The position numbers were made by a program. A DNA stretch of 63,986 nucleotides, the filler included, from an uncultured Ignavibacteriales bacterium (GTDB lineage Bacteria; Zixibacteria; MSB-5A5; GN15; JAAZOE01), in NCBI GenBank assembly GCA_964611355.1. It is 4 parts of 4 records of this genome, joined end to end, with 100 filler letters (N's around TTAATTAATTAA, not from the genome) between each part and the next. Parts side by side here need not be neighbours in the genome. Positions count along the whole stretch, not along the records: positions 1 to 20,481 come from CAZSYD010000040.1; 3 more parts are not named here. One strand, 5' to 3'. Below are positions 1 through 3,000 of the stretch, piece by piece (within the stretch, counting starts at the first letter, position 1; each line of letters begins with the position of its first letter).

Positions 1-3000
1 AAACCGACGGTCGGGTTAACCCGCTCATGCCGGCAATGGGTCCCAACGTCGCCGGGGTGATCGGCTCCGCCGTCGCCGCAGGCGTATTTTTGACGTTTTT
101 GGGGTAGGATAATTTCGCCGTGCGCGTGAATGTCCCCGACGCACATATAAGCATAATTATAAAGCCGGTGGATGTCATCGTCCGCCGGTTTTTCTTTTTT
201 GCGGAATTATTACTTGCAAAAAATGGTAGACAGATATAAATTGATTCTATCATATTGCACTGCAGGAGAATTCGGAGAATGGATTATATTAAGGAGACGC
301 GGCCCCAACCCGGAAAAGCGGGGATAGGTTGTTTTTCTTCGTTATTTGGATGTATTTTAGAGCAGCAATATGGCCTATAGGAATATATCACAATTAAAGT
401 CAAGAATTGTAACGATTCTTAACGCGCAGGGTTACGCTGTAGATAAAAAGGGACATTTCTCTTTAATACAGAACAGTAGAGAAACGCGCCGCCGGGTTCA
501 TGAATTGGCAAAAGCGGAAAGGATTAGGCCAAGAATTAGTTTTATCAAGCGTTTTTCGTCAGTAGTTGGCGCAAATATTCCAAATGGTAGCGATATTCAA
601 GTAGAGAAAATTGATCCATTACTCATTGAGATAAAGCCTGACTCGGACGAAGAGGAATATTTCCGTTGGTGGAACCTGGTATGGTGGAGTCTTCCATATG
701 AAAAAGCTTATGGCAGACAGATGAGATACATAATTTGGGATACTTATCACAATGCTGTTATTGGTTTGATCGGACTTCAGAGCCCAATCCTCAGATGGGG
801 CGTCCGCGATGATTACCTAAACATATCTTTGGAGCAAAGAGACTATTGGATAAATCAATCCTTAAGTGCCCAGCGTTTAGGGGCTGTGCCGCCCTATAAT
901 CAGATTTTGGGCGGAAAATTGGTCTCTCTACTCTTGACTAGTAATAATATTAGAGAAGATTTTCGAAAAAAATACTATAATAAAATGACTATTATGAATC
1001 GTCGCAAACTGCCTGCGCGATTGTTATTTATTACGACAACGGGAGCCTACGGTAAGAGTAGTATATATCAACGGCTAAAGTTTAAAGATGAAGTTGTAGC
1101 GAAATTTATAGGATATTCGCATGGCTCGGGCTCATTCCATATTTCTAACGAAATTTATGATGACTTATTGATGTATCTTGATCGTCGGGGATACAATATC
1201 AAAAGGGGATTCGGCGCAGGTCCTTCCCGTAAGTTACGACTTATTGACACGGCGCTTGGTTTACTGGGATTTAAAGATGGCGCTAAACATGGTATTTTGC
1301 GCGCAGTTTATCTGTTTCCTTTGGCCAAGAACCTAGATAATGTTATTCAGTTCAATAAGCAACCTGTATGGTTTGATAGACCAATTTCGGACTTAACATC
1401 TTTCTGGAAACAGAGATGGGCTATACCACGAGTCGAACGCGATACATCATTTAGAAACTTCAAAGCCTCAGAATTTTTCGACGATGTGGAACACGAATTA
1501 GAAAATATCTGCAATTCCAAAAACTGAGAGTGACGCATGGAAGGCCAAATCGAAAACAAGGGAAATTATGCCCATCTTCCTGAAGAGTTAATGTCGAAGA
1601 TTCTGGAATCGGTTCCTCAGACGGTTGACAAGATGAATAAGATGTTTGACGTTCAAGAAAAGCCATTAAAGCAGGCTATTGATAAGCTAAGAAAATTAGG
1701 AATGACTCAATTTATATCTTCTGATGATTATTCGACATCATTGATTGCGGTGGACGGTGGAATGGTAGTTGATCGGATGACAGGTTCGGATTTACTTTTA
1801 GCTGTTGCGGTTGGTGTCGAAGGGTTAAGTGAAGACCCGAAAGCCGGTTGGGGCATTGACAGAAATCAATATTATCAATGGCAGACGGTTTTACCGCACG
1901 AAGAAGCAACGCCTCGTTTGGCCCAGGGTATCATGTTTCTAATGGAGTTAAGTGTATTAGCTCAATCGGAACATGAAATAAGGATTATGGATGGTACTCA
2001 CTTCACACCGATCTTAAAAATAAACAGCATGCTATCAGCAAAAGAAGAAAATGCTGGTCCTGAATACATTCAGGCTCTGAGGGATTTTTTATCGGATACT
2101 TACGAAAAAATTATACCTGACATACCTGATATAATTGCTTCGGCATTTCAAAATATTGCGATAATCGCTATAGCCAAATACTCATCTTCACGTGATATTC
2201 TTGATCAATACGCGCACGATTTTAAAATATCGGTCGATGATAAAACGTTTTTTGCCCTTACGCTCGATGAGAATGAATACCTTAATCCGCTTCCTGTCGG
2301 GCAAAGTGAAAATGAGCGTAGAAAAATATGGAATGATCTACATATCAAATGTAATCTTGAGATACCTGAAAAAGATGATTTGAATAATGCCCTGGAAAAG
2401 GCAGTCTATCCTTTAATTACTAAAAACAAAATGTCAGAACTACATTTTACGTATTTTAAGCCTTACGCCGATGGCCCCGCTTATCGCATTGAATTAAAAA
2501 AAGCCCTTGCAGAGAATAAAGATGATTTTGAAAAAACCCTCTTAAGTCTGAAAAAGCAGGTTGTTTTTCCCGAAATTCGCGAACCATACCCACAATATTT
2601 AGTTGATTTGATGGCCAAAAGCGTAGCGTCCGGTTTATACGCGATTCAAGAGGGTATAAAATTATCTCCTAATTTGGAATTGGATAAAGGGAGATTTAAT
2701 CTTATTTTTGGTTATAGGACAAAATAGCTATGTCTCAAGAAATTGATATCCTAAAAGTTATTGAAGATGATGAAGGCAAGATACTTGGTATTACAGGATC
2801 GCCAAGCACGACTATTGATATAACAATAGATATTAAGGAAGAAAGCAAATTAGGTCGTATTTTAGGCCAAATGGTCCATTTTGTGGTAGAAGAGGAAGAA
2901 AATCCTATATTAGTAATCGGTCAAGTTATATCAATTGAAACACAGAATCGTTGGCACCAGGATCCCACATTCAAAGGGGTTATACGGTTACATGGCAACC

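Follow-up and report, generated by a model that had tools for sequence, protein, structure and literature searches.

A DruA-family protein with a predicted GNAT-type core, encoded in a conserved cassette with NurA and HerA

Druantia systems of type I consist of five genes (druABCDE), the partners of DruA being DruB, DruC, DruD and the helicase DruE, and those of type II carry a methyltransferase, DruM, in the first position. For DruA, a signature protein of type I Druantia, our literature searches brought up no mechanism. The same domain family is known as DUF4338, which was already termed a GNAT in a paper that does not name DruA (NAR 2024, PMC10853773). DUF4338 is fused there as N-terminal domain to DndF and is thus attached to a DNA-restriction machine with a HerA/FtsK-like ATPase; it was read as a protein-targeting co-effector, and this is the sole published opinion that we found.

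HerA pairs in defence with a variable enzyme, for example in SIR2-HerA and DUF4297-HerA (PMC11514289, PMC11472057, PMC11291478). In tdpABC one modification gene is combined with a HerA/NurA-like pair (PMC12914056). Among GNATs that act on nucleic acids, Mom of phage Mu is a solitary counter-defence enzyme of 231–241 aa, and the RNA cytidine acetyltransferases NAT10, Kre33 and TmcA combine a nucleic-acid acceptor and acetyl-CoA as donor with an ATPase/helicase partner.

The locus described here lies at the left end of the window, by which we mean the whole stretch of DNA analysed (63,986 nucleotides of an uncultured Ignavibacteriales bacterium, assembly GCA_964611355.1). Its features are as follows.

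370..1527, + strand: druA, the DruA-family gene and first gene of the cassette (385 aa, pI 9.8), from open reading frame, Pfam, PADLOC and AF2 model
1537..2727, + strand: predicted NurA-family nuclease gene (396 aa), 9 nt after druA, from Pfam NurA, AF2 model and Foldseek
2730..4511, + strand: predicted HerA-family ATPase gene (593 aa), 2 nt after nurA, from Pfam DUF87 (4.2e-12) and, in PADLOC, HerA models alone
1..4900, no strand: low-GC island with the cassette, GC 0.36–0.43 versus 0.50–0.54 in the adjoining host genes
4894-5988, - strand: ABC-2 permease, right neighbour gene

The left border of the island is unseen because the contig begins at position 1. E. coli genomes contain no DNA match to positions 1–5200, and a scan for promoters and terminators within the cassette gave nothing exceeding the shuffled expectation.

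By its sequence the product of 370..1527 is a DruA-family protein, as had been proposed in the first-pass annotation: Pfam PF14236 (DruA) matches residues 37–325 with E = 2e-64 and 218.1 bits (cut-off 27), and PADLOC model DruA1 (PDLC00002) matches with 1.5e-88. A search of the whole genome returned this open reading frame as the only DruA match. The previously noted identity of 33% over 95% of the length to the DruA of pKF715A was reproduced (33.0%). Plasmid pKF715A carries a genuine type I Druantia of five genes, in which druA also stands first, and the two proteins have the Pfam family, the PADLOC family and the near-invariant residues in common. NCBIfam contains no family matching the protein, and searches of PDB sequences with the single sequence and with a 97-sequence profile yielded nothing relevant (best E 0.23 and 0.56, respectively, both to unrelated chains).

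It should be noted, however, that the gene does not belong to a Druantia system, but heads a druA-nurA-herA cassette. Membership in type I was rejected because druB, druC and druD do not follow druA and because a search of all 110 contigs of the genome for the DruE-type MZB/DUF1998 domain (PF09369) was negative, an absence that is not absolute as the assembly is 96.4% complete; a control search with PF09369 found matches in 8 of 14 reference genomes.

The second gene product is matched by Pfam NurA with 1.5e-5 and 25 bits (cut-off 21) and by none of the PADLOC models. Its model (pLDDT 88.1) retrieves with Foldseek the archaeal NurA 2ygk_A at 6.6e-12 and a chain of a HerA-NurA complex at 6e-11, and TdpB, less close than archaeal NurA, at 1.7e-5; all of 48 sequences keep D73-G74, H121, D152 and D235. 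With the profile of the third gene product the PDB search yielded HerA 8wiv (2.6e-11), TdpA (6.9e-10) and HerA 4d2i (2.8e-8), HerA chains ranging from 2.6e-11 to 1.3e-6, and both Walker A (G190–K196, GxxGSGK) and Walker B (D466–E467) are invariant. As judged from these alignments, the motifs of NurA and HerA are intact.

In its NurA fold, its HerA ATPase and its intact motifs the pair resembles the NurA-HerA end-resection complex of archaea and bacteria, from which the cassette differs by a third, obligatory gene for a predicted GNAT, by the lack of Mre11-Rad50 neighbours and by its location in a mobile low-GC island. The likeness to TdpABC lies in the number of genes and in the combination of a putative modifier with an ATPase resembling HerA and a nuclease resembling NurA; the difference is that TdpC is reported to be a phosphorothioation enzyme whereas the first gene here encodes a predicted GNAT. 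From DUF4338-DndF the cassette is distinguished in that the domain is encoded by a separate gene and has its own N- and C-terminal extensions.

The gene order is not a peculiarity of one genome. With an 11-sequence alignment and a 'QRLGALPPY'-like pattern 75 DruA-anchored genome loci were found, spread over many phyla of bacteria and several of archaea. Both NurA and HerA were present in 48 of the 59 loci whose downstream sequence amounted to 3.6 kb or more, which is no rate for all DruA since the pattern biases the loci to this DruA subfamily, and in 39 of the 48 the order druA-nurA-herA was the same and equally tight. When metagenome loci were anchored on NurA instead, DruA was found in at least 53 of the 56 that had 1.3 kb or more of upstream sequence (52 by tblastn, one by Pfam) and HerA in all 61 that had 1.9 kb or more of downstream sequence. 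Neighbours in relatives include type IIG restriction-modification genes, N6/N4 methylases and serine recombinases. DruA-NurA-HerA is a conserved three-gene cassette, which is often located among restriction and other defence genes, and it is very likely that DruA forms a functional unit with NurA-HerA. What is new is that the conserved DruA core is a near-obligatory partner of a NurA-HerA machine across many phyla. No publication linking Druantia with NurA, and none linking DruA with a GNAT, was found in a literature search that had subscription journals and bioRxiv supplements outside its range; GNAT, HerA and NurA occurred together in one paper, which is unrelated. A complex prediction of DruA with NurA and with HerA residues 1–180 gave 0.00, a value that is uninformative on binding (47-row alignments, no controls).

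The DruA protein can be divided as follows.

370..597, + strand: N-terminal basic region (residues 1–76), predicted in the AF2 model as helix, beta-hairpin and long helix; pI 11.5
598..1380, + strand: predicted GNAT-fold core (residues 77–337) with a two-helix insertion at 260–298; VIA-align rows span 77–336 and 75–338

A GNAT-type core at about residues 78–337 had been claimed in the first-pass annotation with the caveat that the alignment was shallow and the models were weak. An AF2 model rebuilt on 97 sequences of 26–49% identity has a pLDDT of 96.1 and a pTM of 0.93, and all five models lie at 95.5–96.1, which removes that worry. In a VIA-align search against 48,161 chains 69 had Z ≥ 8, and the best 50 of these 69 were all from the GNAT superfamily, with Z falling from 10.1 (Mom, 8bv8_B) to 8.1 at rank 50 and with residues 77–336 of DruA covered, so that the core claimed earlier stands with practically the same limits (about 77–337). 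A rerun on the top 996 chains of Foldseek gave 295 at Z ≥ 8, the best 50 again all being GNATs. The top rows of Foldseek against the PDB are GNATs throughout; the second caveat, that no PDB match reaches E ≤ 1e-3, still applies, the best E being 6.9e-3.

Sequence comparisons were also made. No Pfam GNAT family matches DruA at E ≤ 1, and only one of 97 family members has such a match (PF22559, 0.039). The ESM Atlas cluster nearest to DruA outside its own family, 'Phage GNAT-like' (PF22559), scores 0.82 and falls short of the lead threshold of 0.9. An hhalign comparison with the canonical Acetyltransf_1 family is not significant (E 0.082, P 0.08, 91 columns), the alignment being collinear over beta3-beta4-alpha3-beta5. 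In a control the canonical GNAT family and Mom, which are a known GNAT pair, also failed to reach significance, which indicates that hhalign has little power at such distance.

It could be argued that the assignment reflects a chance likeness of a common alpha/beta sandwich and that DruA has another fold and function, since a Z of about 10 is only 2–3 units over the best-hit background stated for VIA-align, all Foldseek E-values exceed 1e-3, and a significant sequence link to GNATs is absent in both Pfam and hhalign. However, at rank 50 Z is 8.1 where the stated background is 4–5, GNATs account for 50 of 50 rows in each of the two VIA-align listings, 295 of 996 chains have Z ≥ 8, the best local hhalign alignment has motifs A and B correctly in register, and an independent GNAT assignment has been published (PMC10853773). 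We regard a chance likeness as highly improbable and the predicted GNAT fold of the DruA core as highly probable. The same publication deprives the assignment of the priority given to it before, when it was presented as the first enzyme-type hypothesis for DruA.

Two segments of the core deserve attention with respect to catalysis.

880..918, + strand: beta4-alpha3 loop GAVPPYNQILGGK (residues 171–183) at the position of GNAT motif A, from conservation, AF2 secondary structure and hhalign
1051..1074, + strand: post-beta5 segment 'GKSSIYQR' (residues 228–235), from conservation and from hhalign (P 0.08, not significant)

In the loop, P175 is invariant, and Y176 (98/100), K183 (97/100), G182 (90/100) and G181 (79/100) are highly or largely conserved. 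An hhalign comparison without significance pairs the loop, with its GG-K, with motif A of the canonical GNAT family, the register being as expected. At this place DruA reads 'PPYNQILGGK', which is degenerate with respect to the CoA-pyrophosphate motif Q/R-x-x-G-x-G/A: only 16 of 100 sequences have Q at the Q/R position, and I or L takes the place of the first Gly of G-x-G. In the second segment G228 occurs in 99 of 100 sequences, S230 in 97, and Y233 and R235 in 95 each. In hhalign (not significant) Y233 is paired with the motif-B tyrosine, which often serves GNATs as general acid, and residues 225–236 are coil in the AF2 model rather than helix alpha4. D124, G132 and P175 are present in 100 of 100 DruA sequences, and some 25 other positions, shared with the pKF715A protein, are conserved to at least 90%. 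The near-invariant set (D124, G132, P175, R116, Y176, K183, Y202, S230, Y233, R235, H307, R311, R349 and R354) is common to the type I DruA of pKF715A, to one DruE-adjacent DruA and to one kinase/ORC-linked DruA. Conservation has its maxima in the alpha1-beta2 loop, in beta4, in the beta4-alpha3 loop with alpha3, in beta5 and in the post-beta5 loop, which, as judged from the order of secondary structures in the model, are the elements lining the GNAT active site. Towards both termini the protein is variable, with a mean column identity of 0.28–0.43 for residues 1–76, and a variable target-recognition domain as is typical of sequence-specific DNA modifiers was not identified in DruA.

The degenerate motif A and the variable N- and C-terminal surfaces would fit a GNAT fold that is not catalytic but serves as sensor or adaptor for a nucleic-acid structure or an infection ligand and recruits or gates NurA-HerA. 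The exchange of DruA among several effector modules is also sensor-like. Furthermore, in two NurA-anchored loci, L163 and L164, DruA was not found by tblastn, and in L163 the open reading frame immediately upstream of NurA encodes an HTH plus M78/IrrE-type peptidase protein of the regulator/sensor type, which hints that the first position of the cassette could hold a sensor. This explanation is nevertheless unlikely: some 25 residues kept at 90% or more in a family reaching down to 26% identity are more typical of an enzyme, the conserved D, S, Y, H and K cluster in the elements of the GNAT active site, and DruA is better conserved than its partner, with 42–47% identity in a distant clade as compared to 22–26% for NurA. 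DruA is probably catalytically active.

As to what such an enzyme would transfer, the comparison with Mom is instructive. Mom is nominally the top structural match of the DruA core (8bv8_B, Z 10.1, rmsd 4.0, 172 residues aligned; in the rerun on Foldseek's top 996 chains 8bv8_A with Z 10.6, rmsd 4.3 and 185 of 222 residues), but it is tied with ordinary GNATs, Z differences being below 1, and the special likeness has no counterpart in sequence: Pfam Mom (PF25680) does not match DruA at E ≤ 1, and when the DruA profile was compared by hhalign, a low-powered method here, with a profile of 33 Mom sequences, Prob was 0.1%. The BFVD match to Mom that had been put forward is present, but only at rank 9 with 3.9e-3. 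A forced low-threshold hhalign of the core with Mom (0.15%, in an implausible N-terminal register) was dropped as evidence. What the two proteins have in common is the GNAT fold and basic character; additional helices are also inserted in the late part of each fold (at about residues 175–209 in Mom; the two helices at 260–298, between late strands, in DruA) and would be counterparts by position only. They differ in that DruA, with 385 aa, is cellular and linked to nuclease and motor genes. According to a recent study (Nat Commun 2026, PMC13219725) the donor of Mom is Gly-tRNA(Gly) rather than acyl-CoA, the acceptor is the adenine N6 of dsDNA, and R111, S124 and R151 are essential; the insertion of Mom is HTH-like. 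The counterpart of R111 by inferred position is R169 of DruA, where R is found in only 21 of 100 sequences. The likeness to Mom had been taken to indicate that DruA depends on acyl-CoA; with Gly-tRNA(Gly) as donor of Mom it speaks against an acyl-CoA donor rather than for it.

Since Mom shows that binding of tRNA is possible for GNATs of such shape, DruA could also be thought of as a GNAT toxin acting on tRNA like TacT/AtaT, which would stop translation and so provide an abortive-infection arm beside DNA degradation by NurA-HerA. DruA is basic, and a 'bacterial toxin' GNAT (7byy_A, Z 8.3) is among the VIA-align matches, although it is no better than about 40 other GNATs. We consider a toxin very unlikely, because DruA is twice the size of TacT/AtaT-type toxins and because an antitoxin-like small gene is found neither in nor beside the cassette, both in the window and in the 75 genome loci.

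A second comparison concerns the acceptor. The longest VIA-align alignments of DruA (188–209 residues, Z 9.0–9.4) are with Kre33/NAT10/TmcA, which also appear in the Foldseek rows, and extend before the core; sequence identity is about 8–10%, and the helicase is fused in those enzymes whereas HerA is separate here. DruA-family domains are fused to ParB_N plus DNA methylase and to IS-type HTH, and homologues also occur in phages and giant viruses (in part according to the Phold preprint). The pI values (9.8 for DruA, 11.5 for its N-terminal region), the alignments with Mom and with Kre33/NAT10, the fusions to DNA-related domains and the viral homologues are the reasons why we lean, tentatively, towards a nucleic acid as acceptor, which is quite possible but short of probable.

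The structural matches are for the most part N-acetyltransferases of proteins or small molecules (Naa60, SpeG, RimI, GCN5), and the Gly-Gly with which alpha3 begins would suit binding of the CoA pyrophosphate. DruA could thus use acetyl-CoA and have no nucleic-acid substrate, acting as a co-effector or regulator on a host or phage protein or on NurA or HerA, in agreement with the only opinion in print on the DndF-fused DUF4338, which assumes protein targets (PMC10853773). This is, however, an unlikely alternative: DruA has a pI of 9.8 and seven near-invariant Arg/Lys, the family is fused to DNA-binding and DNA-modifying domains, and the same conserved site occurs with four different DNA-directed back-ends, so that a protein acetyltransferase would need a protein target shared by bacteria and archaea.

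Our preferred reading, a nucleic-acid-directed transferase, would be consistent with the following picture, in which family membership, the GNAT fold, the conserved gene triad with its setting in defence islands and the intact motifs of NurA and HerA are established by the results above, and catalysis, donor, acceptor and self-marking logic are what we infer. DruA-NurA-HerA is a compact, horizontally mobile defence-island system separate from type I Druantia. DruA is composed of a central GNAT-type transferase domain of about 260 residues, a variable, very basic N-terminal region and C-terminal helices, and would transfer a group from acyl-CoA or aminoacyl-tRNA onto nucleic acid, most likely DNA. 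This modification or discrimination step would either spare host DNA or license attack. As expected from family membership, NurA-HerA would be the effector, an ATP-driven translocase plus nuclease degrading DNA from ends. The role of DruA would parallel that of TdpC with TdpAB and that of DruM in type II Druantia. By analogy with TdpC/TdpAB it is thus conceivable, if not yet probable, that DruA marks or discriminates DNA for NurA-HerA; that the mark identifies self is in itself doubtful.

The cassette is much smaller than Druantia and combines two well-understood parts with DruA, which makes it a tractable system for finding the role of this protein. If DruA is a DNA-modifying GNAT, this would explain the missing modification component of type I Druantia and define a new DNA mark; should it turn out to be a sensor or to acetylate proteins, an unexplained defence family would still be given a role. 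More speculative, and in our estimation unlikely, is the generalization that GNATs of the DruA family write a novel acyl or aminoacyl mark on DNA that several unrelated motor-nuclease modules use as a self/non-self signal. If true, it would add a third chemical class of restriction-modification to methylation and phosphorothioation, with Mom as the phage-side counterpart. The modules concerned would be NurA-HerA, DruBCDE of type I Druantia, the DndFGH fusions and a kinase/ORC-like ATPase module.

In some relatives further genes are inserted inside the cassette, namely GmrSD, LmuB-like and TmtA-like genes.

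In agreement with the first-pass annotation, the ORF close to the start of the window is a DruA-family gene. Its product, P0001, scores 218 bits against Pfam PF14236 (cut-off 27), and the annotated identity of 33% over 95% of its length to the DruA of pKF715A was reproduced. The family numbers 1,392 cluster representatives at E<=1e-3, of which 169 pass E<=1e-30, and a whole-genome search of the 2.57-Mb, 96%-complete assembly finds this one member only. The pKF715A plasmid locus is a genuine type I Druantia of five genes (products of 409, 558, 625, 260, and 1,841 amino acids). 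At the window locus PADLOC finds no druB, druC, or druD 3' of druA, and an MZB/DUF1998 (DruE) domain is absent across the genome at 96% completeness. The genes are arranged as follows:

370..1527 (+): druA, ORF of 385 residues; Pfam PF14236 "DruA" 2e-64, PADLOC DruA1 1.5e-88
1537-2727 (+): nurA, 9 nt 3' of druA; Pfam NurA, 25 bits against a cut-off of 21
2730-4511 (+): herA, 2 nt 3' of nurA; HerA ATPase with invariant Walker motifs

The AF2 model of NurA (pLDDT 88.1) matches 2ygk_A at 6.6e-12 and HerA-NurA complexes at about 1e-10 in Foldseek, and the acidic residues are invariant in the family alignment. PADLOC 2.0.0 lacks a model for this NurA, and its HerA matches are only partial. With a GC content of 0.36-0.43 the cassette forms an island next to host genes of 0.50-0.54; the contig begins 369 nt 5' of druA.

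The DruA-NurA-HerA cassette is, we conclude firmly, a conserved unit that is not Druantia type I. A DruA-anchored scan of genome contigs, whose search pattern is biased toward the subfamily of the window's DruA, yielded 75 loci (37-61% identity) with NurA-like genes in 56 and HerA-like genes in 53. Where the contig runs on for at least 3.6 kb downstream (59 loci), both partners are present in 48, in 39 of these in the same tight order. Five of the remaining 11 carry a kinase + ORC/Cdc6-like ATPase (~846 aa) with a CARF-like protein (~369 aa), and one has a DruE1-type helicase immediately 3' of DruA. An independent, NurA-anchored metagenome scan, from which the best 80 of at least 476 relatives were taken, gave DruA by tblastn in 52 of the 56 loci that extend at least 1.3 kb upstream, and HerA in all 61 that extend at least 1.9 kb downstream. 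In one further locus, L129, DruA was missed by tblastn and is seen only by Pfam (1.4e-28); L163 and L164, whose match statistics are nearly identical, have no DruA match by tblastn. Immediately 5' of NurA in L163 (2785-4002) lies a 406-aa ORF with HTH_3 and Peptidase_M78 (ImmA/IrrE-like) domains. Some clades have the order NurA-HerA-DruA, and no conserved gene was found upstream of the cassette in the 75 DruA-anchored loci. Hosts in the DruA-anchored set are bacterial (Zixibacteriota, Patescibacteria, Nitrospirales, Gammaproteobacteria, Bdellovibrionales, Bacteroidota, Planctomycetota) and archaeal (Methanosarcinales, Methanomicrobiales, Ferroglobus, Bathyarchaeota). Of the three proteins, DruA is conserved best in the distant clade (42-47% identity; NurA 22-26%, HerA 30-33%).

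The GNAT-type core proposed for DruA in the first-pass annotation was confirmed and strengthened. Whereas the previous model was built on 23 close sequences, an alignment of 97 representatives (26-49% identity) gave an AF2 model with pLDDT 96.1 and pTM 0.93, all five models lying at 95.5-96.1. VIA-align over 48,161 chains returned 69 at Z>=8, headed by Mom of phage Mu (8bv8_B, Z 10.1, rmsd 4.0, 172 aligned residues); all 50 rows listed are GNATs, with Z still 8.1 at rank 50, over DruA residues 77-336. In a second look at 996 chains, 295 reached Z>=8, Mom was again on top (8bv8_A, Z 10.6, rmsd 4.3, 185 of 222 aligned), all 50 listed rows were GNATs, and Kre33/NAT10 aligned over 188-209 residues. 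Since the stated background of the tool is lower (about 7-8 for a best match, 4-5 at rank 50), what argues most strongly for the fold is how deep and uniform these lists are. Against the PDB, no Foldseek row reached E<=1e-3 (best 1y9k_D, 6.9e-3), although each of the top ones is a GNAT or a GNAT-containing enzyme. Four rows are significant in BFVD (2.2e-17 to 9.3e-9), all of them DruA-like proteins from giant viruses and an uncultured tailed phage; Mom ranks only ninth (3.9e-3). We firmly place P0001 in the DruA family and assign its core, as modelled, a GNAT fold.

At the level of sequence, P0001 has no match at E<=1 to a GNAT family in Pfam; 97 of 97 family members match DruA, and one of them also "GNAT-phage-like" PF22559 (0.039), a family which in the ESM Atlas is nearest to DruA at 0.82 and is a lead only. 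In hhalign the result was null (Prob 0.1%) when the DruA profile was set against that of 33 Mom-family sequences, and a canonical Acetyltransf_1 family, built from a GNAT gene of the same genome, gave a non-significant E of 0.082 over 91 columns. The latter alignment is collinear across beta3, beta4, alpha3, and beta5, with "PPYN-QILGGK" of DruA opposite motif A and "SSIYQRL" opposite the "WYKRLG" of motif B. The test cannot reject homology, because the control, Acetyltransf_1 against Mom, both GNATs by crystal structure, fails too (Prob 0.5%). The Mom-specific and acyl-CoA parts of the earlier proposal are not supported as they were stated.

Among 100 DruA sequences, including the type I DruA of pKF715A, a DruE-adjacent DruA, and a kinase/ORC-linked DruA, D124, G132, and P175 are invariant. 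R116, R146, D147, G171, P174, Y176, G182, K183, Y202, G228, S230, Y233, R235, G248, G252, G254, H307, R311, R349, W350, and R354 are present in 90-99, and G181 in 79. Conservation is highest in strands beta4 and beta5, in the alpha1-beta2 and post-beta5 loops, and in alpha3 together with the beta4-alpha3 loop; placed by the order of secondary-structure elements rather than by 3D geometry, these would be the elements lining the GNAT cleft. Residues 1-76 and the helices at the C terminus vary. Motif A is kept only in part: at its Q/R position, 16 of 100 sequences have Q. With a calculated pI of 9.8, and of 11.5 for its N-terminal part, the protein is very basic.

That DruA had received no enzyme-type hypothesis before, as was claimed, is not so in print: PMC10853773, which nowhere names DruA, already calls DUF4338 fused to DndF a GNAT domain and suggests a protein-targeting co-effector. 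Searches of the literature, to which bioRxiv supplements and subscription journals did not belong, found no paper joining "DruA" with "GNAT" or "Druantia" with "NurA" and no prior description of the DruA-NurA-HerA cassette; a YprA-helicase preprint mentions neither GNAT nor NurA. "DruA" and "acetyltransferase" meet, in biology, in the Phold preprint alone, which reports DruA-like folds in six Synechococcus phages. According to PMC13219725, Mom takes glycine from Gly-tRNA(Gly) and attaches it to N6 of adenine in dsDNA, its HTH-like insertion is essential, and R111, S124, and R151 are required. PMC12914056 describes tdpABC as one modification gene, tdpC, with TdpAB.

The cassette likely serves in defence, with NurA-HerA degrading DNA. 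DruA may be a transferase acting on nucleic acid and supplying the modification or discrimination step, a tentative reading to which we give somewhat less than an even chance. It draws on the basic charge and conserved cleft, on Mom and NAT10 as the longest structural matches, on fusions to ParB_N with a DNA methylase and to an IS-type HTH, on the phage and giant-virus homologues, and on the precedent of TdpC with TdpAB, as well as on the methylase DruM, whose place in type II Druantia is likened to that of DruA. However, motif A is degenerate, no target-recognition domain is seen in DruA, a regulator-type HTH-M78 gene takes its place in L163, L163 and L164 both being without a DruA match, and the suggestion published in PMC10853773 is a protein target. 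As for the donor, the Gly-Gly-Lys that opens alpha3 would favour one that bears phosphate, such as CoA, but by the example of Mom a tRNA donor is possible. Of more interest is the cassette itself, a three-gene system for testing DruA chemistry.

Cargo inside the cassette, on either side of nurA, seems to be tolerated. In related loci from other genomes and metagenomes (L-numbers), inserted defence genes are GmrSD (L034:11269-13038), an LmuB-like gene with a small ORF (L039:10310-12956), and TmtA-like genes (L048:2769-5930; L057:10131-13259); a pentapeptide-repeat protein is inserted in L041:5817-8111. Type IIG restriction-modification genes lie just 5' of the cassette in L010-L012, and an N6/N4 methylase cluster occurs in nine loci and serine recombinases in seven. 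The kinase + ORC/Cdc6-like ATPase module accompanies the same DruA subfamily in L040, L046, L052, L053, L056, L058, L062, and L068 (for example L058:10127-13773), the ~846-aa ATPase matching PADLOC CARF6--CARF_STK_AAA at 5.6e-38 beside its ~369-aa CARF-like partner; it replaces NurA-HerA or, in L046, L052, and L056, co-occurs with it. In L055:9001-15620 a 1,822-aa helicase of the DruE1 type (PADLOC DruE1, 1030 bits; MZB domain) stands immediately 3' of DruA, with no DruB, DruC, or DruD between the two; the genes on either side run on the opposite strand. The locus may represent a DruA-DruE variant of two genes.

Viral members include gp106 of the T4-like Pelagibacter phage HTVC008M (L079:4917-6056; PF14236 5.5e-18), two genes past SbcCD-like recombination nuclease genes and adjoining a JmjC/cupin protein, and, by fold in BFVD, proteins of the giant viruses Faunusvirus, Yasminevirus, and Dasosvirus (2e-17 to 9e-9); P0001 matches phrog_19197 at 9.7e-8. 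DruA is fused to ParB_N and an N6/N4 DNA methylase fragment (P0071), to the DUF4096 IS4/5 transposase N-terminal domain (P0032, P0073), and to DUF488 (P0008), and seven DruA proteins of 603-701 aa have C-terminal extensions without a Pfam match.

In the window itself, the sole terminator-like hairpin of the first 5 kb (161-192, +; 14-bp stem, then a T-run) lies 5' of druA, within a partial minus-strand ORF (2-253) without a Pfam match. A 920-aa ORF at 11714-14476 (-) is broken by a run of N, read as X in translation, and the contig is therefore scaffolded there. The gene for an ECF-type sigma factor (Sigma70_r2/r4) and the zf-HC2 anti-sigma-like gene after it (15187-16289, +) belong to the ordinary host complement and have no relation to the cassette.
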